From a bacterium (GTDB lineage: Bacteria > Patescibacteriota > Minisyncoccia > Phycocordibacterales > UBA5272): a DNA stretch of 64,000 nt. The notes under the pieces were generated by a model. It was not told the DNA's origin and ran no database searches. It saw only the letters and a program-made list of their open reading frames with translations. Of the stretch, positions 10,947 through 55,638 are shown one piece after another. Every line of letters begins with the position of its first letter. Position 1 is the first letter of the stretch. Where the stretch lies: NCBI GenBank assembly GCA_043765155.1, contig JAYUJP010000022.1, positions 5,077-69,076 of the forward strand, given 5' to 3'. The translations under genes were made by a program, and so were the position numbers.

Positions 10947-11037
10947 ATTTTTTATTATTTGTTTATATTTTAATTTGCTTTGTGATAACTATTTCTATTA
11001 AATAGATTATAACATATTTTTATATGCGAGTATTATA

Positions 11038-11046
11038 TGATATAAT
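11038..11046 (+). promoter_or_regulatory. Extended -10 promoter TGATATAAT
   Basis: It lies inside the longest ORF but 16 nt upstream of the in-frame ATG (MDDLKSE), which is therefore taken as the gltX start. Confidence 0.4.
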
Positions 11047-11062
11047 GCTCTTAAATAAATTT

Positions 11063-12877
11063 ATGGACGATTTAAAATCAGAAGACACATCAAAATTAGC
11101 TAGCTTACTTTTCCCAGATATAGCAAATGGCAGCAAAAATAACAGGTCTCATTTTGAACAAGAGAGAAATGCATTAATGGCCAAAAGAGATCTTCAGAAA
11201 AGCATTAACTCTGCAGGTGAGCAAGTTACACCAGAAGTCACCCGCGTCGGACCTAGCCCAACAGGGCCAATGCATATAGGTACGCTATACATGGCGCTGG
11301 TATCAAAGAAAATAGCGCAGCAGAGCGGCGGACTTTTTTATTTAAGAATAGAAGATACTGACAAGGCGCGTGAGGTGGAGGGCGCGAGAGAATTTATAAA
11401 AAGCACTCTGAGCGATTATGATTTAAATTTTGACGAGATATATACGCAGAGTGAGAGAGTAAAAGTATATAAAGCTTTTGCTTATGACCTTGTAGCAAGA
11501 GGCTTAGCCTACCCATGTTTTATGAGTAGCGCGGAACTAGATGCGATGCGCGAAGAGCAGACCGCAATGAAAACAAGACCGGGAGTATATGGTAAATATG
11601 CAAAGAGTAAGGGGTTATCTTTTGATGAGATAGAAAAATTATTGCAAGATAATTCAGAACAAAATAATCTAATAAGCGGCGCCAGCGAAGCTGGCGCCGG
11701 AGAAAGCAAAAATGAAAACAAATTAGAAAAAGTCACTAAAAATAACTTTGTATTAAGATTTAGAGCAAATGGTGATGTAAATAAAAAAGAAAAATTTATC
11801 GACGAATTTTTGGGCGAGCATAATATACCTGAGAATGATGAAGACTTTGTACTACTTAAAAGTGACGGAGTGCCAACTTATCATTTTGCCCACGTTGTAG
11901 ATGATTATACACTCGGTACAACTTTTGTTACGCGTGGTGAGGAGTGGTTGTCGAGTCTGGGTAAGCATTTGGCTTTATGGCGCGCCTGCGGCGCGCCGGT
12001 TCCAAAATACGGCCACATAATGCCTATTAATAAAAAAGAGATAAATGCAGAAAATAAATCAAGCGTGAGAAAGTTATCAAAAAGAAAAGATCCTGAGGCT
12101 AGTATGAGCTATTGGCAGGAAATGGGTTATACGCGTGACGCGATAGTGTCATATCTATTACGCCTTGCTAATCCTGATCTTGATATATGGTGGGACGAGA
12201 AAGTAAAAAGTAATACAGATATAAAAATAAATGAGTATGCTTTAGATCTAAAACAAATGAAAAGAGGAAGCCGTGGCCCGCTTCTTGACTTTGCTAAGCT
12301 AGATAATATGTTAGCTGATCTTATATCTCAAATGAGCGCAAAGGAAGTCTCGGAAAAAGTTTTAGACTATACAAAAAAGTATGATGTAGAATTATTTGAG
12401 ACCATAAATAACTTAGAAAATAAAGACGCAAATTATCTTGAGCAAATATTAAATATAGAAAGAGAGGGAGAACAAAAGAGAAAAGATATAGCCAAGTGGA
12501 GTGATGTGAGGGAGCAAGTATTTTATTTTTATGATGAATTATTTGAAGAGAGAAAAAGAGAGTCAGAAATTTTTACAGAACAAGAGAAAAAAATAGCAAA
12601 GCTATTTGCAAAAAAGTTAGAAGAAATAGGATTTGAAAACTGTATGACAAGCCTCGAAGTTTGGATGGAAAAGATGAAGATGATATACGCCGACAACTTT
12701 GCTGAAAATGAAGAATTTAAAGTAGAAGATAAAATAGGAAATAAATCTGCAGTAAAATTTGGTCAAGTCATGATGATGGTCAGAAAGTCCGTCACAACAA
12801 AAGAGAAAACTCCTAACTTGTATTATGTATTTGAAGTGCTAGGAAAAGAGAGAGTTATTAGTAGATTAAGTAATTAG
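11063..12877 (+). CDS. gltX: Glutamate--tRNA ligase (long form with insertions)
   Basis: Class I motifs PSPTGPMHIG (HIGH), RIEDTD and KLSKR (KMSKS). It has low-complexity insertions (GASEAGAGESKNENK) and a long C-terminal extension. Confidence 0.85.
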   Translation: MDDLKSEDTSKLASLLFPDIANGSKNNRSHFEQERNALMAKRDLQKSINSAGEQVTPEVTRVGPSPTGPMHIGTLYMALVSKKIAQQSGGLFYLRIEDTDKAREVEGAREFIKSTLSDYDLNFDEIYTQSERVKVYKAFAYDLVARGLAYPCFMSSAELDAMREEQTAMKTRPGVYGKYAKSKGLSFDEIEKLLQDNSEQNNLISGASEAGAGESKNENKLEKVTKNNFVLRFRANGDVNKKEKFIDEFLGEHNIPENDEDFVLLKSDGVPTYHFAHVVDDYTLGTTFVTRGEEWLSSLGKHLALWRACGAPVPKYGHIMPINKKEINAENKSSVRKLSKRKDPEASMSYWQEMGYTRDAIVSYLLRLANPDLDIWWDEKVKSNTDIKINEYALDLKQMKRGSRGPLLDFAKLDNMLADLISQMSAKEVSEKVLDYTKKYDVELFETINNLENKDANYLEQILNIEREGEQKRKDIAKWSDVREQVFYFYDELFEERKRESEIFTEQEKKIAKLFAKKLEEIGFENCMTSLEVWMEKMKMIYADNFAENEEFKVEDKIGNKSAVKFGQVMMMVRKSVTTKEKTPNLYYVFEVLGKERVISRLSN

Positions 12878-12883
12878 TACAAT

Positions 12884-13321
12884 ATGAAAGTATTTGATAA
12901 TATAAAAGAAATAGAAACAGAAGATGCCTGGATAGCCAAGACAAAAGTTAAAAAAGGATTAGCTGGATTTGGACTTTTCGCTGAGCAAGAGATCAAAAAA
13001 GGTGAAAAGATAATAGAGTATATTGGTAAGATATTACTGGGTAAAGAGGCAGAAGAAGTCAAAACTAATATGTACCTTTTTGAAGTGTCTAAAAATAAAA
13101 CTATAGACGGTAGTGTGAGGTGGAACAAAGCGAGATACATGAATCACAGCTGCAAAGGTAATAGTGAGAGCGAGATTAGAAAGGGTAGAGTATTTATAAT
13201 CGCTACCAAAAATATTAAAATAGGTGAGGAGATAGTTTATGATTACGGTGAAGTATTTTTCAAAGAGTATATAGGTAAAAATTGTAGATGCGATAGTAAA
13301 AAACATAGTTATCAGAAGTAA
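12884..13321 (+). CDS. SET-domain protein lysine methyltransferase
   Basis: GFGLFA (GxG), ARYMNHSCKGN (NHSC), EEIVYDYG, and post-SET Cys cluster CRCDSKKH. Confidence 0.85.
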   Translation: MKVFDNIKEIETEDAWIAKTKVKKGLAGFGLFAEQEIKKGEKIIEYIGKILLGKEAEEVKTNMYLFEVSKNKTIDGSVRWNKARYMNHSCKGNSESEIRKGRVFIIATKNIKIGEEIVYDYGEVFFKEYIGKNCRCDSKKHSYQK

Positions 13322-13465
13322 ATAAAATAAAAAATAAAGAGTTAAAAGATAGTAATTTAAAGTTTAAATATAAAAAGTGCTAAGCCTCATAGATATTAAA
13401 AAATAAGTTAATAATTAAAACAAAATATAAAATTAATAAAAAATATATAAATAACAAAAATTATA

Positions 13466-13494
13466 CAAATGCAAACGCGAAGTGTTTGCATTTG
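13466..13494 (+). terminator. Hairpin (possible terminator after the SET gene)
   Basis: CAAATGCAAAC-GCGAAGT-GTTTGCATTTG perfect 11-bp stem with a weak T tail. Confidence 0.35.
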
Positions 13495-13659
13495 TATCTT
13501 ATGAGTTATCCACAGAGAGATTATATAAAAACTATTTACAATAAATTTGTATCTGTCATAATGTAAATATGAGAGTGAAAGGCCTAGGTCAAAGTCTACT
13601 GTAAATAAATTAAAAACATTACGGAACACTCTCAAAAGTTTTAAATCTATATAATTACT

Positions 13660-13833
13660 ATGGCAGTAGCAAAAAAGAAAGTAGCAGCTAAAAAAGTTGC
13701 GAAAAAGGCAGTTAAGAAAGTGGTAGCAAAGAAAGTAGCAGCTAAAAAAGTTGCGAAAAAAGCTCCAGCTAAAAAAGTAGCAGCTAAAAAAGTTGCGAAA
13801 AAGGCAGTCAAGAAAGTTGCAAAAAGAAAGTAA
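13660..13833 (+). CDS. Lys/Ala-repeat histone-H1/Hc1-like small basic protein (57 aa)
   Basis: MAVAKKKVAAKKVAKKAVKKVVAKKVAAKKVAKKAPAKKVAAKKVAKKAVKKVAKRK*. It is followed by a perfect terminator. The 156-aa minus-strand ORF over the same DNA is a low-complexity antisense artefact. Confidence 0.55.
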   Translation: MAVAKKKVAAKKVAKKAVKKVVAKKVAAKKVAKKAPAKKVAAKKVAKKAVKKVAKRK

Positions 13834-13852
13834 TATTTCTGAGTATCGACTT

Positions 13853-13893
13853 AAAACAAAACACTTGAATAAAATCAAGTGTTTTGTTTTGGG
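13853..13893 (+). terminator. Rho-independent terminator
   Basis: AAAACAAAACACTTGA-ATAAAA-TCAAGTGTTTTGTTTT, a perfect 16-bp stem. Confidence 0.8.
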
Positions 13894-13971
13894 TATAACT
13901 CTAAAATTTTTCCCTAAAATTAAGATAAATTATAGTATAATAACCTTGAATAAGATAAATAATACAAAAAT

Positions 13972-15024
13972 ATGTTTTTTAGACAAGAAAATAAAATAGT
14001 GACAGCCATAGATATAGGTACAGCCAGTATAAAGTCAGTAGCCATAATAAGAGATGGAGAAAGGTTACTTCTTAATAATTATAATGAGATATATTCTGCT
14101 TCTTATGTGGGGAAAGACGTAGGACAATATGCCAAAATGGGATATTTAGAAATGGGAAAAATAATTAGTGATTCATATAATGAGCTAAAAGTAAAAACAG
14201 ACTTACTAGTTATGGGTATACCAGCTTCAGAATGTATTTTTAAAAATGTGAAAATACCTACACATGTTTTGAATGCAACCGAGGATAAAAATCTTATAGA
14301 TAACATAATAAAATTAGAATTCAAAAAAAATACTATAGGCTTAGACATTTTAAATTATAATTTTACCTTTTCAGAAATAAATCAAAATCAAAATGAGAGA
14401 GAGTATCTTGTGCTTGCTATCAAAAAAGAATATATATCAAATATAAGTAGCATAGCAAGCAGTATTAATAAAAACTATATAATAGAGCCAAATATTTTTG
14501 GAGGTATAGCAATGCTACCACATGAGATAGGAGTAAATAACGTGCTCCTAAATATAGGAGCTAATAATATAAATATAGTATTTATAAATGATGGTAAAAT
14601 TGTCGGCGTAGAAAATATAGAGCAAGGCATAAACAAAGTTATTTTTAATGTAAAGACCTCTATGCTACTTGGCTATAGAGAAGCAAGAGAATCAGTTTTT
14701 GCTTTTGATTATCTAAATGAAGAGGACCTAATATTAAAAGACATAATAAAGTTATCCACAATAAATCTTATAAATGACATTATAGACGTTCTTAATAGAT
14801 ATGAATTAAGATATAATGTAAAGTATAATAAAGTTTATATAGGAGGAAGTTCAGCCAAAATACTTAATACTAAAATTTTTTATGAGAATCATCTCAAAAA
14901 AGAGGTTGCAATTATGAGACCTTTTGAAAGAATAGAGATGCCTCAAGTTCTCCAAGATTCTCTTGTAAAAGATTCTGCTGTATTTATGAACTCAATAGGA
15001 CTCGCCATAAATCATGTAAACTAA
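13972..15024 (+). CDS. pilM: Type IV pilus assembly protein PilM (actin-like ATPase fold)
   Basis: N-terminus AIDIGTASIKSVAI is typical of PilM/FtsA-like proteins. It is the first gene of the pilus cluster. Confidence 0.75.
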   Translation: MFFRQENKIVTAIDIGTASIKSVAIIRDGERLLLNNYNEIYSASYVGKDVGQYAKMGYLEMGKIISDSYNELKVKTDLLVMGIPASECIFKNVKIPTHVLNATEDKNLIDNIIKLEFKKNTIGLDILNYNFTFSEINQNQNEREYLVLAIKKEYISNISSIASSINKNYIIEPNIFGGIAMLPHEIGVNNVLLNIGANNINIVFINDGKIVGVENIEQGINKVIFNVKTSMLLGYREARESVFAFDYLNEEDLILKDIIKLSTINLINDIIDVLNRYELRYNVKYNKVYIGGSSAKILNTKIFYENHLKKEVAIMRPFERIEMPQVLQDSLVKDSAVFMNSIGLAINHVN

Positions 15025-15038
15025 CATAAAAATAATTT

Positions 15039-15791
15039 ATGCCACCAATAAGACAAAATAATACATTTTTAAATACAGGTCAAGAAAATAGACAAGATCT
15101 AAATCCAGCTAATCCGTTTAAAACATTAGGTGTAATATTTTTAATTGTGTCAGTGCTATTAAGTGTAACAAGTTACTTAGTACTTAGCTTTACCGAGAGT
15201 AAAAATGTTAAAATTGAAAATAACATAAAAAGTATAGAAACTAGTCTTACAAATGTACCTCTGTCTGAGATGTTAGTGTTTTATAATAAGATAAGATCTA
15301 TAAACAGTGTTCTAAAGTCTCATTATTATGTTACAACGCATCTTGCGACACTCTCAGACGCAGTAGAATCGTCTACATATTTTAAAAATTATAACTTTAC
15401 AGTAAAAGAAAAAGGAGACAGTGAAATAACCTTTTCTGGAGTAACAACAAATGAGTCTAATGTAGTTAGGCAAATAGATTTATTTAAAAGCGATAAGTAT
15501 AGTAAGTTTATAAAAAGTGTAGAGCTAAAGTCTGTATCAAAGGATCAATTTGATAATATTTTGTTTGATTTAAAATTAACTATAGATAGCACCGTAAAGC
15601 CTGACTATATAATATCTGAGAACTTAAGAGTAAATACCCCGGTTAAAAATATTATACAGACAAATTCTACTAGCACTAATGGCACCGGTACTCAGGTTCA
15701 AATAGGATTTGACTCTGTAGTCAAAGGACAAAAGACAGTATCTAGCTCAACAGCTACAACAACAGCAACAACTAGCATAATAAAAAGGTAA
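15039..15791 (+). CDS. PilN-like bitopic membrane protein
   Basis: Single TM near the N-terminus (LGVIFLIVSVLLSVTSYLVLSF). Position after pilM and the Thr/Ser-rich C-terminus support the call. Confidence 0.5.
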   Translation: MPPIRQNNTFLNTGQENRQDLNPANPFKTLGVIFLIVSVLLSVTSYLVLSFTESKNVKIENNIKSIETSLTNVPLSEMLVFYNKIRSINSVLKSHYYVTTHLATLSDAVESSTYFKNYNFTVKEKGDSEITFSGVTTNESNVVRQIDLFKSDKYSKFIKSVELKSVSKDQFDNILFDLKLTIDSTVKPDYIISENLRVNTPVKNIIQTNSTSTNGTGTQVQIGFDSVVKGQKTVSSSTATTTATTSIIKR

Positions 15792-15793
15792 AT

Positions 15794-16363
15794 ATGAAAA
15801 AAGAAAATATTATAATAATTAGTTTATATGCGATATCTATATTTTTGATAATAGGTGTTGCTTATCCTATATATAGCGGAGGAGGCTTAAAAGTTTTACC
15901 AAATACCTCTAATATAATGTATGAGCTAGCGAGATATGACTCACTAAAAGATTTAGAGTTGGAGGCTCTAAAGTTAAAAGATAATGGTATTATACAGGCA
16001 GAAAACTATATAAATATAAGCCAGGATAAAAAAAGTAGAATAGACGTATCGATACCAGAAAAAATAGATATAGGCCGCAAGATAAATGATCTAGCTAAAA
16101 TAGCGCAGGCACACAAAATGAAAATGTCGGATATAAAGTTTTCTAAAAATACAGTTAACAAAAAATTTCCAGATCTTAACACCTATGACATGTCTATGTC
16201 TCTTGAGGGTGAGTATTTGAACTTTAGAGATTACATAAATACAATACAAAATAGCCTACAGATATATAATATAAAGTCTCTTAGCTTTTCTAGATCAGAC
16301 AGTCAGGATCAGGTATCTAGTTATAAGTTCTCATTAACAGTAGAAGCTTTTGAGCTAAAATAA
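15794..16363 (+). CDS. PilO-like bitopic membrane protein
   Basis: N-terminal TM followed by predicted coiled coil. Assigned by synteny. Confidence 0.45.
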   Translation: MKKENIIIISLYAISIFLIIGVAYPIYSGGGLKVLPNTSNIMYELARYDSLKDLELEALKLKDNGIIQAENYINISQDKKSRIDVSIPEKIDIGRKINDLAKIAQAHKMKMSDIKFSKNTVNKKFPDLNTYDMSMSLEGEYLNFRDYINTIQNSLQIYNIKSLSFSRSDSQDQVSSYKFSLTVEAFELK

Positions 16364-54327: not shown

Positions 54328-55638
54328 ATGTATATAAAATATAAAAAAATACATTTTATAGGAATTGGTGGTATAGGAATGTCAGCTCTTGCTAGATATT
54401 ATAAGTCTCAAGGTGTAATTATTAGCGGTAGTGACTCATCAGAAAGTGAGCTAATAGATAATCTTAGATCTGAGGGTATTATTGTAAATATTAGCGAAAG
54501 TTCTGATAATGTAGCGGATGACATAGACTTACTAGTCTATACTATTGCTATTAAGAGTGATAACGTGGAGCTATTAAAAGGTTTAGAACTAGCCAATAAT
54601 AATGAAAAGAGCTGTAGAGTGTTAACTTATCCACAAGCACTCGGAGAGATGTCACGTGAAAAAAAAGTGATAGCCGTATGTGGTACTCATGGCAAGACCA
54701 CAACTACGGCGATGGTATATAATGCCCTGCAAAATGCTGGATTAGATGTCTCTATGATACTTGGTTCACTAATTAAGGATAAAAATAGTGAAAACAAAAT
54801 GACTAATTATATACACGGCAATAGTGACTGGATAGTTATAGAAGCTTGTGAGTACAGGAGAAGCTTTTTAAATTATAATCCTGAGATAATATTAATTACT
54901 AATATCGATGCCGATCATCTAGATTATTATAAAGACATCGATGATATTGAAAATGCTTTTAGAGAGTTTATAGACAGGTTATCAGAAAACGGAAAAGTTA
55001 TAATACATAAAAACGAAGAGAATATTCTCGAAAAATTAGAAAAGAAAAAAGTTGTAAATAAGATTATTTGTGAAGATGTTATAAATCTAGAAGATGTAAA
55101 ATTAAGTGTACCAGGCGAGCATAATAGAAAAAATGCGCAGCTTGTTGTCGCTCTGGGTGATATGCTTAGTCTAAATAGAGAAAAAGTTTTAGAGGGCCTT
55201 AAAAATTTCGCTGGTACATGGAGAAGGCAAGAATATAAAGGTAAGCATTTTGATATGGAGTGTTATGATGATTATGCTCATCACCCATCAGAAATAAAAG
55301 CAACTTTGCAAGCCTTTAGAGAAAAATGTCCTGATAAGAAAATCATAGCTTGCTTTATGCCTCATCTTTATAGTAGAACCAAGATATTATTTGATGACTT
55401 TGTAAATAGCTTTGAAGATGCTGACGAAATTATACTATTGCCAATATACGCAGCGCGCGAGCAAGTAGATATTAGTATAAGTAGCGACATGTTAGCGCGT
55501 GAGCTTAATAACATAAATAAAAAGGCTGTATCACTTGCTAATATAAATACTTTGAAAGACTATTTAAAAATTCATAGTGACAAAGATAATGTAGTAGTAA
55601 CTATGGGTGCGGGAGATATTTATAAACTCTACGAATAA
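54328..55638 (+). CDS. murC: UDP-N-acetylmuramate--L-alanine ligase
   Basis: HFIGIGGIGMSALA N-terminus, GTHGKTTTT P-loop, and Mur ligase middle and C domains. Confidence 0.9.
   Translation: MYIKYKKIHFIGIGGIGMSALARYYKSQGVIISGSDSSESELIDNLRSEGIIVNISESSDNVADDIDLLVYTIAIKSDNVELLKGLELANNNEKSCRVLTYPQALGEMSREKKVIAVCGTHGKTTTTAMVYNALQNAGLDVSMILGSLIKDKNSENKMTNYIHGNSDWIVIEACEYRRSFLNYNPEIILITNIDADHLDYYKDIDDIENAFREFIDRLSENGKVIIHKNEENILEKLEKKKVVNKIICEDVINLEDVKLSVPGEHNRKNAQLVVALGDMLSLNREKVLEGLKNFAGTWRRQEYKGKHFDMECYDDYAHHPSEIKATLQAFREKCPDKKIIACFMPHLYSRTKILFDDFVNSFEDADEIILLPIYAAREQVDISISSDMLARELNNINKKAVSLANINTLKDYLKIHSDKDNVVVTMGAGDIYKLYE

Follow-up and report, generated by a model that had tools for sequence, protein, structure and literature searches.

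Results

A predicted minimal SET-domain methyltransferase gene

The window, meaning the whole 64,000-nt stretch of Patescibacteriota DNA analysed here, carries on its plus strand a SET-domain gene (12884..13321) and, downstream of it, a short gene of lysine-rich repeats (13660..13833), which we call the minigene. The 145-aa product of the first gene matches the Pfam SET profile (PF00856) over its full length (profile positions 1-105; E = 3.2e-23, 82.6 bits against a cut-off of 22.4). Its S-adenosylmethionine-binding and catalytic motifs, GFGLFA, RYMNHSC and EEIVYDYGE, align with those of KMT2C, bearing out a preliminary description of the locus that had reported a complete SET domain with GxG, NHSC and EEIVYDYG. 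Invariant across 66 SET homologues are G28, G30, N87, H88, C90, Y119, D120, Y121, C134, C136 and H141. The post-SET motif, previously given as CxC..C, has to be corrected: it is C134-x-C136-x4-H141, all invariant in the 66 homologues along with C90 of NHSC, and the canonical zinc motif CxCx4C is absent, with a histidine invariably where the third cysteine is expected. CxCx4H is therefore a predicted variant zinc site with histidine as the third ligand; remoter homologues have CxCxxC.

Profile searches of PDB sequences retrieved the SET domains of KMT2C/D and MLL1 (E about 1e-22). An AlphaFold2 model (pLDDT 75.6) has the predicted SET fold, and a Foldseek search with this model placed MLL1, G9a/GLP, NSD and SET8 at the top (probability 1.0, TM-score 0.6-0.7). 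Judged by these sequence features, the gene encodes a minimal but complete SET-domain protein-lysine methyltransferase. If MLL1 is taken as a guide, the tyrosine at the first position of YDY presumably points to mono- or di-methylation. In most of the Patescibacteria homologues the N-terminus is extended by a Lys-rich stretch of about 45 aa, and homologues in Alphaproteobacteria have a fused C-terminal tail rich in K, R and A (for example ...KKSVAKKARSARKADKAAAPKKRAKAKKAKARAKR). In the window the gene starts 7 nt beyond the stop codon of gltX (12877), and co-transcription with gltX is therefore probable in this genome.

The minigene is a selected coding gene

The SET stop codon is separated from the minigene by 338 bp, in agreement with the earlier estimate of about 340 bp. 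The minigene encodes a 57-aa polycationic protein made of (A/V)KK(A/V) repeats of 4-5 residues, its DNA comprises about 2.3 copies of a 54-nt unit, and no other ORF of the 64-kb window is Lys/Ala-rich. We collected 72 distinct orthologues of 16-62 aa, a family whose Lys/Ala-rich repeat composition is shared throughout (K 47%, A 29%, V 11%). All 72 keep an ATG-GCA start and an open frame 0, and stops occur in frames +1 and +2 of 52 and 55 of them, respectively. Substitutions per codon position number 82/91/336, with 66% falling on third positions, and dN/dS is about 0.13 in the sense frame against 2.25 in the antisense register, so that the Ka/Ks comparison proposed earlier points to purifying selection on the sense frame. 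The codon choice for Lys and Ala departs from that of the flanking genes in 47/49 loci; for lysine, AAG makes up 65% of codons in the minigene and 33% in its flanking genes, and is higher in the minigene in 47/49 loci. Because of the intact orthologues, the excess of third-position substitutions, the low dN/dS and the distinct codon bias, we consider the minigene, as predicted from sequence, a real and strongly selected coding gene. Purifying selection acts on the SET gene as well as on the minigene.

A 156-aa ORF on the opposite strand (13408..13878, minus strand) does exist, and its dismissal in the preliminary description as an artefact was justified. Sense third positions are antisense first positions in this register, as computed from the coordinates, and composition alone leaves one antisense frame stop-free in 67/72 orthologues; we therefore rejected it as a gene. 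The same description had the minigene overlooked by ORF callers. This is only partly so: the gene caller used on ENA assemblies did find the 57-aa gene, whereas an exact look-up of the window sequence and five orthologues in a clustered protein collection recovered 0/6, and annotation pipelines may thus treat the minigene poorly. A phmmer search gave 8000 word candidates and 0 significant matches, because of composition filtering. With the protein searches blank, the distribution of the minigene was established from DNA.

In composition and periodicity the product resembles the C-terminal tail of linker histone H1 and bacterial H1-like proteins. The globular H15 winged-helix domain is absent, since all 57 residues are repeats, and no Pfam linker-histone profile matched. 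Scores against HC2 were 14 bits for the window protein and 17.6 bits for one orthologue (cut-off 40), the NCBIfam HC2 score was 13.4 (cut-off 135), Hc1 was unmatched in Pfam and NCBIfam, and the Burkholderia-type histone H1-like family (NCBIfam NF038053) scored 14.1-17.8 bits (cut-off 80). The likeness to the Hc2 and Burkholderia H1-like families is compositional. Ribosomal-protein profiles were matched neither by the window protein (E up to 0.1 in Pfam and up to 1 in NCBIfam) nor by six orthologues (E up to 10), a blank result with which a novel ribosomal protein is compatible, as HMMER filters discard most weak matches.

The minigene has its own predicted promoter, leader and terminator

Upstream of the minigene lies the element AGTTATCCACA (13504..13514, plus strand), which holds a perfect DnaA-box consensus, TTATCCACA, at 13506-13514. 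Some 19 nt separate this site from the -35 element downstream, and its centre is near -58. AGTTATCCACA is invariant in 49/49 distinct orthologous upstream regions, lies 37-40 nt from the promoter TG (exactly 38 nt in 38/49), and accompanies the minigene even where the latter has parted from the SET gene. Three perfect copies of TTATCCACA occur in the window against 0.57 expected, and only that in the minigene promoter is intergenic; the others, at 14752 (pilM) and 54627 (a Mur-ligase-like ORF), are inside coding regions and were set aside as probably chance or codon-driven. The sigma-70-type promoter itself (13535..13562, plus strand) consists of a -35 TTTACA (13535-13540), a TG (13554-13555) and a -10 CATAAT (13557-13562); it is the best promoter match of the region (10/12 with TG) and predicts a transcription start at about 13569-13571. 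In 49/49 orthologues TGnnATAMT is kept, and is followed by GAGAG after 7-9 nt (5 nt in one). The arrangement is thus that of a predicted DnaA box at a conserved position upstream of a sigma-70-type promoter.

The minigene had been described as bracketed by hairpins and ending in a perfect 16-bp terminator. Hairpins do flank it, but the upstream one is in fact two. That following the SET gene (13463..13497) is a perfect 14-bp hairpin within a wider imperfect repeat (13451-13509), has a T-run on its minus-strand side only, and touches the DnaA box with its right flank; it may terminate SET transcripts or work bidirectionally, with an uncertain function for the plus strand. The other (13570..13634, plus strand) is located in the 5' UTR of the minigene, at the predicted mRNA 5' end, with an outer stem formed by UGAGAGUG and CACUCUCA (arms 13570-13577 and 13627-13634). 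Its outer-stem GAGAG...CTCTC is invariant, and an inner hairpin, GAUCA-nGGUCG-UGAUC, is present in most relatives. On an alignment of 49 sequences, pairing is found in 93.7% of alignment cells and in 31-50% of those of slid controls; five pairs have compensatory changes. The fold of the window leader is unexceptional (z-score -1.0), and from RNAalifold alone came the 4-bp inner helix and nothing else. As an invariant outer stem cannot display covariation, the leader structure is moderately supported. An Rfam scan of the whole window reported four tRNAs only, leaving leader and terminator unmatched, and a covariance model of the leader recovered no copy besides this one, whether in the window or in SET loci that lack the minigene; weak matches in two such loci (L005, L012) were unrelated hairpins, that in L012 lying in a contig-end palindrome.

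Behind the minigene, the 16-nt inverted repeat is exact (13853-13868 / 13875-13890, 6-nt loop), forming a perfect 16-bp stem (13853..13890, plus strand) that can be lengthened to about 20 bp and whose arms carry an A-tract and a T-tract, a putative intrinsic-type terminator. It was passed over by a consensus terminator scan, since its T-run lies inside the 3' arm of the stem rather than after it. The 75-nt downstream segment containing the stem folds at -30 kcal/mol, and nearly all of 73 distinct orthologous downstream regions fold strongly (median -23.8, weakest -15.7 kcal/mol). The window stem is AT-rich, whereas orthologues show the classical form of A-tract, GC-stem and T-tract; in most lineages the 3' stem-loop has an invariant CUCCCAYG loop. 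With a DnaA-box consensus, an extended -10 promoter, a leader hairpin and a putative terminator, the minigene is predicted to be a transcription unit of its own.

The two genes are adjacent in most loci

Looking for the pair in relatives, as had been proposed, gave a strongly positive answer from both sides. Among 49 minigene loci from GTDB species-representative genomes, the SET gene is the immediate upstream ORF in 39 and is 0.9-3.1 kb away in a further 9. Searching metagenomes with the minigene promoter pattern alone yielded 28 distinct loci, some of which share contigs with the genome loci; 25 of these have a SET gene upstream (21 directly, 4 within 0.7-1.3 kb), and three do not (L113, L122, L130). 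About 19/57 metagenome pattern matches lacked a minigene and came from unrelated genomes; these we took as other promoters or chance. In the genome and metagenome sets the SET gene is the upstream neighbour of the minigene in 80-90% of loci, a figure to be read with the ascertainment bias of both samples, as the promoter pattern was built from SET-linked copies. Enzyme and Lys-rich partner are thus genetically linked in the same genome.

The genes downstream of the pair are variable (secA 15, hpf 6, pilM 3, and others). For this reason, and because of the strong predicted terminator between them, we rejected the idea that the minigene is a leader peptide of pilM. The common gene order is hsp20-valS-SET-minigene-secA/hpf; in the window and in one other locus (L003) it is gltX-SET-minigene-pilM, indicating that the pair survived a rearrangement in which valS was replaced by gltX. 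Seen from the SET gene, the minigene is absent within 4 kb in about 15-20% of loci (L004-L009, L012, L013, L024 and others). About 10 Patescibacteria SET loci, which include five of the six relatives nearest in SET identity (L004-L009, L012), lack a minigene over 4 kb, and their spacer to the next gene is short. Relatives lacking the minigene or carrying it with frameshifts, and a different constant partner of the SET gene, had been named beforehand as observations that would speak against the pair. None of these was fully encountered, and an intact minigene is present in most relatives. A short SET N-terminus and a longer minigene are uncorrelated (Spearman -0.01).

Discussion

The SET gene and the minigene appear, from the comparative sequence data, to be a two-gene module conserved in Paceibacteria-type Patescibacteria of the candidate phyla radiation. 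Separate predicted promoters and terminators mean that co-transcription is not the basis of their linkage. The adjacency supports functional coupling of the two genes, most likely as enzyme and substrate, and the association of the SET family with basic tails at the domain level, seen in the N-terminal extensions and in the Alphaproteobacterial fusions, adds to the case for a pair. Precedents for such a pairing exist in cpnSET with Hc1, Go1-SET with MC1-alpha and BaSET with H1 (PMC3980110).

We therefore propose a module of a SET enzyme and an H1-tail-like substrate, a reading to which, with methylation and DNA binding included, we give about an even chance. According to this proposal, the minigene peptide would be abundant and would bind polyanions, most likely chromosomal DNA, through charge neutralisation. 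The SET enzyme would use S-adenosylmethionine to methylate the epsilon-amino groups of the repeated AKK motifs, and this methylation, which keeps the charge, would tune binding, condensation or protease resistance. Synthesis of the peptide may be tied to DnaA and hence to replication status; the conserved predicted DnaA-box promoter suggests that replication control is linked to the supply of a nucleoid protein. As a conserved pair, the two genes make the coupling of a writer with a chromatin protein directly testable.

Inheritance of a whole block, hsp20-valS-SET-minigene-secA, could also account for the adjacency, with the SET enzyme acting on another target, such as a translation factor, a ribosomal protein or the basic tail that it carries itself. 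A divergent valS is found upstream of SET, at times with one gene between, in most loci (untallied); this arrangement recurs as SET-minigene does, and therefore part, possibly much, of the linkage would be inherited synteny within one clade. The separate transcription signals of the two genes, the loci in which either gene occurs alone, and the Lys-rich tails of most homologues agree with this, as does the chlamydial enzyme NUE, which methylated itself at a KK site of its tail but did not methylate Hc1 (PMC2904774). Set against it are the constancy of the SET gene upstream compared with the highly variable downstream neighbour, the persistence of the pair through the exchange of valS for gltX in the window and L003, and the Alphaproteobacterial fusions with H1-like tails, which point to a functional tie between domain and tail. 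On balance we think that synteny as the whole explanation is unlikely, while taking it seriously. A different doubt concerns the peptide, which might mainly bind RNA, ribosomes, tRNA or polyphosphate rather than act in the nucleoid, its modification by SET being optional. The genes conserved next to it serve translation (valS, gltX, hpf, fmt, def), but reduced genomes are dominated by such genes and the neighbours are little informative; a structured 5' leader is a usual feature of ribosomal-protein mRNAs under autoregulation, and the ribosomal-protein families of Pfam and NCBIfam were unmatched. For one orthologue, NCBIfam gave as best sub-threshold match a ValRS family, at the Lys/Ala-rich tail of its C-terminus (E = 4.5e-5); the match is compositional. 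Pseudomonas H1-like repeats bind polyphosphate granules (AlgP, PMC9239181) or RNA (PhaF, PMC12818456), whereas the DnaA-box promoter better suits a link to replication or the nucleoid, and we regard a role mainly in binding RNA or polyphosphate as rather improbable.

More remote still is the idea that the SET protein is an effector directed at chromatin proteins of a host, such as archaeal histones or the MC1 of methanogens, and that the minigene is unrelated. Such a role would parallel the SET effectors of Legionella and Chlamydia. Characterised bacterial SET proteins are mostly secreted effectors (PMC3980110), some Patescibacteria parasitise methanogenic archaea, and in both sequence and fold the protein comes nearest to eukaryotic histone methyltransferases. 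However, the 145 aa are nearly all SET domain, with no secretion signal or targeting domain evident by eye, the family also occurs in free-living Alphaproteobacteria with fused basic tails, and it would be left unexplained why an endogenous Lys-rich gene is linked to SET so tightly and in both directions; we judge an effector role very unlikely. Hardly credible is an untranslated minigene, that is, a repeat-derived open frame or a non-coding RNA. A low-complexity repeat is open in several frames, as the antisense frame illustrates in 67/72 orthologues, and neither phmmer homologues nor an entry in the protein cluster collection were found; but the start and frame are intact in 72/72 where +1 and +2 acquire stops (52 and 55), substitutions concentrate on third positions (66%; dN/dS 0.13 sense, 2.25 antisense), and Lys and Ala codons are chosen unlike those of the flanking genes in 47/49 loci.

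Returning to the enzyme-substrate module, one may speculate further on a minimal chromatin-like circuit in Paceibacteria-type Patescibacteria. According to this speculation, which we consider improbable as a whole, the H1-tail-like polycation would be the main DNA coat, with DnaA-box-coupled synthesis, mRNA control by the 5' and 3' stem-loops, and a dedicated, co-evolving SET writer. Coupling of synthesis to replication initiation would then be analogous to histone synthesis in S phase. If true, bacteria would possess a 'histone tail plus writer' system of their own, unconnected with manipulation of a host.

Comparison with known systems

A close counterpart is found in Chlamydia, where a bacterial SET methyltransferase (cpnSET/NUE) exists beside the small Lys/Ala-rich, H1-like DNA-condensing proteins Hc1 and Hc2. 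The precedent, invoked in the preliminary description as methylation of Hc1/Hc2, is contested. One report describes binding of cpnSET to Hc1/Hc2 and its methylation of truncated Hc1 fragments (Murata 2007, reviewed in PMC3980110), but C. trachomatis NUE left full-length Hc1 unmethylated and instead automethylated at a KK site in its own basic tail (PMC2904774). Unlike in Chlamydia, SET and minigene are adjacent here, and their adjacency is conserved over many genomes; the minigene product consists of repeats only, without the N-terminal domain of Hc1 and below the HC2 threshold, and the post-SET motif is CxCx4H. NUE is moreover a type III-secreted effector (PMC2904774), whereas no secretion signal is evident by eye in the window protein. 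Go1-SET of Methanosarcina mazei is likewise a minimal prokaryotic SET protein, and there an endogenous small DNA-architectural protein, MC1-alpha, is methylated (PMC3980110). MC1 is folded and has a single target lysine, Lys37, while the candidate substrate here has about 25 lysines in a disordered chain of polycationic repeats, and the lineage of Go1-SET is archaeal where that of the window is bacterial.

Among eukaryotic proteins the SET domain is closest to MLL, G9a/GLP, NSD and SET8, and the peptide mimics the composition of the H1 C-terminal domain. Unlike the eukaryotic system, there is no winged-helix H1 domain, no pre-SET/AWS or accessory domain and no nucleosome, and the zinc site has a histidine. 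In mycobacteria, the Lys/Ala/Pro-rich C-terminal repeat tails of the nucleoid-associated proteins HBHA and HupB/MDP1 are methylated on lysines, and to our knowledge the methyltransferase responsible is not a SET protein. These tails are of the AKK/PAKK type and bear lysine methylation and other modifications that affect function (PMC10665949, PMC5931751, PMC13639343). They are tails on folded domains, whereas here the repeats form a free-standing gene next to a SET gene. Pseudomonas AlgP and PhaF are also bacterial (K/A/P)-repeat polycations that bind polyanions, and we know of no dedicated methyltransferase partner for them. Both are much longer and form part of multidomain proteins, and their ligands are polyphosphate granules, PHA granules or RNA (PMC9239181; PMC12818456). 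With DnaA-regulated promoters, whose high-affinity box is TTATCCACA, the minigene promoter shares a perfect 9-mer at fixed spacing in all orthologues, here as a sequence match. In the literature we found no described case of DnaA control of a histone-like gene and no earlier report of a SET-minigene pair in Patescibacteria.

Bacterial SET proteins have been viewed mostly as effectors against host histones, and the evidence for modification of an endogenous bacterial chromatin protein by SET is a single, contested chlamydial report. The module described here is compact, is conserved across many uncultured ultra-small bacteria, and encodes its candidate substrate next door to the enzyme; the enzyme-substrate question is therefore directly testable. 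The minigene product is probably a major binder of nucleic acids in a phylum with a scarcely explored chromosome biology. If it is indeed methylated, endogenous lysine-methyl marking of chromatin-like proteins would take in a deep bacterial radiation.

Results

By its motifs and predicted fold, the 145-aa SET protein is an intact enzyme. It scores 82.6 bits against Pfam SET, and a profile built from 20 homologues matched the KMT2C/D and MLL1 SET domains at E ~1e-22. An AlphaFold2 model (pLDDT 75.6) returned MLL1, G9a/GLP, NSD and SET8 in Foldseek with probability 1.0. The motifs GxG, RYxNHSC and E-I-x-YDYGE are invariant among 66 homologues. The preliminary description had thus read GxG, NHSC and YDYG correctly, but its post-SET CxC..C was slightly wrong, since the third Cys of canonical enzymes is replaced by an invariant His, giving C-x-C-x4-H. 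Across many MAGs family members share 60-92% identity, an unusually high conservation, and an identical protein is present on ENA metagenome contigs; all named relatives come from Patescibacteria, Paceibacterota, Nomurabacteria or Parcubacteria MAGs. The source is therefore most likely a candidate-phyla-radiation bacterium with a reduced genome.

In most family members a conserved Lys-rich stretch of ~45 aa extends the N-terminus (MKKKQSxILKKGG...KKV...), more fully MKKKQSxILKKGG...KKVxKKV...LPDHHFK in homologues P0025-P0120 and loci L010-L069. The window protein has none, and extension length shows no correlation with minigene length (rho = -0.01). In alphaproteobacterial homologues (Xanthobacteraceae, Hyphomicrobiales) a K/R/A-rich tail is fused right after the zinc motif, e.g. 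...CDKCIEKRAEKRKLARKKSVAKKARSARKADKAAAPKKRAKAKKAKARAKR; in L074-L077 and L080-L082 these tails span 15-50 residues and resemble H1 tails (e.g. L075:3962-4504), and the zinc motif is CxCxxC instead of CxCx4H. Such basic tails may indicate that the enzyme acts on or beside polycationic, nucleic-acid-bound sequences. Alternatively, they may be automethylation sites, as in the chlamydial SET protein NUE, whose tail was shown to be automethylated (PMC2904774).

The locus (GC of the window ~34%) runs on the forward strand from gltX (11024-12877) through SET (12884-13321) and an AT-rich spacer of 338 bp, close to the 340 bp first estimated, to the minigene (13660-13833), a 57-aa (A/V)KK(A/V)-repeat ORF. 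Directly 3' lies a type IV pilus assembly cluster of pilM, pilN, pilO, a 98-aa ORF and the T2SSE/PilB ATPase (13972-16363 and onward; L001:6089-10438), and the L017 minigene likewise adjoins pilM-pilN. No recognisable Shine-Dalgarno sequence stands before the start codons of SET, the minigene or pilM, the three inspected (12850-12884, 13630-13660 and 13940-13972), where the DNA is simply A/T-rich.

Apart from the minigene, the 64 kb window has no Lys/Ala-rich ORF. Genome and metagenome loci yielded 85 orthologues, comprising 72 distinct DNA sequences, which encode 16-62 aa (K 47%, A 29%, V 11%). None of the 72 has a stop in the annotated frame, whereas frame +1 is interrupted in 52 and frame +2 in 55. 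Substitutions per codon position number 82/91/336 in 45 close same-length pairs, and dN/dS (Nei-Gojobori), a comparison proposed in the preliminary description, is 0.13 versus 2.25 in the antisense register tested. AAG supplies 65% of Lys codons versus 33% in flanking genes (higher in 47/49 loci), and GCA 69% of Ala codons versus 42%. Such bias marks a translated gene under translational selection, and expression would be high. The open sense frame, third-position substitutions, dN/dS and codon bias thus expose the overlapping antisense ORF of 156 aa as an artefact, as had been supposed. By these measures the minigene is a real, selected gene, and a non-coding stretch is barely conceivable. 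The claim that gene callers miss it was half right: the sequence is absent from the clustered protein collection, but the ENA-contig caller did call the 57-aa gene. A phmmer search with it found nothing because of composition filtering.

In composition and periodicity the protein is H1-tail-like, yet it is no demonstrable member of any named family. It scored 14-17.6 bits against the HC2 threshold of 40 and 14-18 against the Burkholderia H1-like threshold of 80, missed the NCBIfam Hc2 threshold as well, lacks a globular H1 domain and matched no ribosomal-protein family.

We aligned the 130-160 nt before the ATG of 49 distinct orthologues and measured the spacings. An invariant AGTTATCCACA (window 13504-13514) is followed, after 37-40 nt (exactly 38 nt in 38/49), by the TG of an extended -10, TGnnATAMT. 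In the window, TTTACA (13535-13540), TG (13554-13555) and CATAAT (13557-13562) form the best promoter match of the promoter scan. The leader, GAGAG(T)...(A)CTCTC, lies 7-9 nt further on (5 nt in one orthologue); in most genomes it encloses a GATCA-nGGTCG-TGATC hairpin, and an A/T-rich stretch, often TTTGTATAAT, separates the leader from the ATG. The predicted transcription start is the first base of the outer stem, and the mRNA would therefore open with a 5'-terminal stem-loop. Such stem-loops are known to stabilise mRNA, and this one would presumably do the same. In the leader structure 93.7% of alignment cells are paired, slid controls reaching 31-50%. Five pairs show compensatory changes, although the outer stem does not vary and is therefore uninformative on covariation. 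RNAalifold alone recovered the inner helix only, and the window leader folds with z = -1.0. Support for the RNA structure is moderate. A weak match of the leader covariance model in L012 was discarded as spurious, arising from a long perfect palindrome at the contig end (L012:8230-8338) that looks like an assembly artefact.

A strong hairpin follows nearly every orthologue (median -23.8 kcal/mol, weakest -15.7); in the window it is the perfect 16-nt inverted repeat at 13853-13890 recognised at the outset. Promoter and hairpin mark the minigene as its own transcription unit, which is probably strongly transcribed. In the majority clade (L014-L069, L084-L139) the hairpin lies within ~75 nt of the stop codon (e.g. 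L015:4806-4880), its stems varying freely around a conserved CTCCCAYG loop that is absent in the window, L003 and L027. Perfect-stem hairpins with a TCCCA loop number 33 across ~0.5 Mb of related loci, every one of them just 3' of a minigene. The conserved loop suggests a specific 3' RNA element, e.g. a protein-binding site.

The classical consensus of a high-affinity DnaA box, TTATCCACA, turns up three times in the window versus 0.57 expected, the minigene copy alone being intergenic. The coding copies, at 14752-14760 in pilM (also conserved in L003) and at 54627-54635 in a 436-aa Mur-ligase-like ORF (54328-55638), are probably chance or codon-driven. In related loci the element occurs essentially once, at the minigene-promoter position, centred near -58, ~19 nt 5' of the -35 and rigidly phased with the promoter; where the minigene is parted from SET, it stays with the minigene. 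By position, phasing and co-movement AGTTATCCACA therefore behaves as a transcription-factor site, and from the consensus alone we infer DnaA as the factor. In one subclade a second conserved AGTTATCCACA occupies the short spacer between the valS 3' end and the hsp20 start, both genes on the opposite strand (L052:1595, L053:1591, L057:1466, L058:1593, L065:860, L066:208, L069:639), where the same factor may also control hsp20. Four unrelated AT-rich metagenome contigs (L095, L107, L135, L137; GC 21-28%) carry a homologous promoter, AGTTATCCACA + ~38 nt + TGATATAAT, without a minigene; the geometry is therefore used elsewhere too.

The SET-minigene adjacency, first noticed in the window, recurs in relatives and is reciprocal and rearrangement-resistant. 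Scanning a single genome for each GTDB species gave 80 SET loci. The minigene lies 184-446 bp downstream of SET on the same strand in 39 Patescibacteria loci and 0.9-3.1 kb downstream in nine; two SET loci on truncated contigs still show the upstream element. Some ten Patescibacteria loci have no minigene within 4 kb of SET, among them L004-L007 and L012, where only 30-140 bp separate SET from the next gene. Seen from the minigene, SET is the immediate upstream ORF in 39/49 loci, and the downstream ORF is secA (15), hpf (6), pilM (3) or one of many others. A metagenome scan by promoter pattern alone returned 57 loci; among 28 distinct ones that have a minigene and extend at least 600 nt 5' of it, SET is directly upstream in 21, 0.7-1.3 kb upstream in four and missing in three, both surveys being ascertainment-biased and some metagenome contigs duplicating genome contigs.

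Discussion

There is about an even chance that SET and the minigene form an enzyme-substrate pair. In such a pair the peptide would coat polyanions, most likely DNA, SET would methylate lysines in its AKK repeats, and expression of the minigene would be tied to DnaA.

A quite possible, if less likely, reading is that the adjacency is inherited synteny and SET has a different target. The common order is hsp20<, valS<, SET>, minigene>, then secA> or hpf>, and the divergent valS recurs across most loci (uncounted); an inherited block thus accounts for part of the linkage. In the window and L003, gltX stands in place of valS and pilM lies downstream, with SET and minigene still together. It is rather unlikely that the peptide mainly binds RNA, ribosomes or polyphosphate. 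One observation touching that reading is the best sub-threshold match of one orthologue, to the Lys/Ala-rich C-terminal tail of the ValRS family (PRK14900, E = 4.5e-5). The match is probably coincidental and due to composition; in most genomes (L004-L069) the conserved divergent gene beside SET is valS. Least expected of the roles for SET itself, and improbable in our judgement, is that of a host-directed effector.

Our full-text search found no paper joining 'SET domain' with Patescibacteria; the sole one joining it with 'candidate phyla radiation' appears to concern another subject. Among the titles and abstracts listed by a search on nucleoid proteins, none tied Patescibacteria to H1-like proteins, a weak negative since two of the four terms sufficed for a match. 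The Lys/Ala/Pro tails of mycobacterial HBHA and MDP1, which are methylated, serve as functional analogues. The closest precedents for the pair are cpnSET-Hc1/Hc2 and Go1-SET-MC1-alpha (PMC3980110). The chlamydial parallel drawn in the preliminary description exists, but it is contested: NUE, a secreted effector, left full-length Hc1 unmethylated (PMC2904774). The SET-substrate concept has precedents, and for the present pair the biochemistry is putative. What appears new is the genetic linkage of SET to an H1-tail-like partner, a pair that has a DnaA-box promoter of its own and belongs to a deep, uncultured radiation; it is strongly conserved and lends itself readily to testing.
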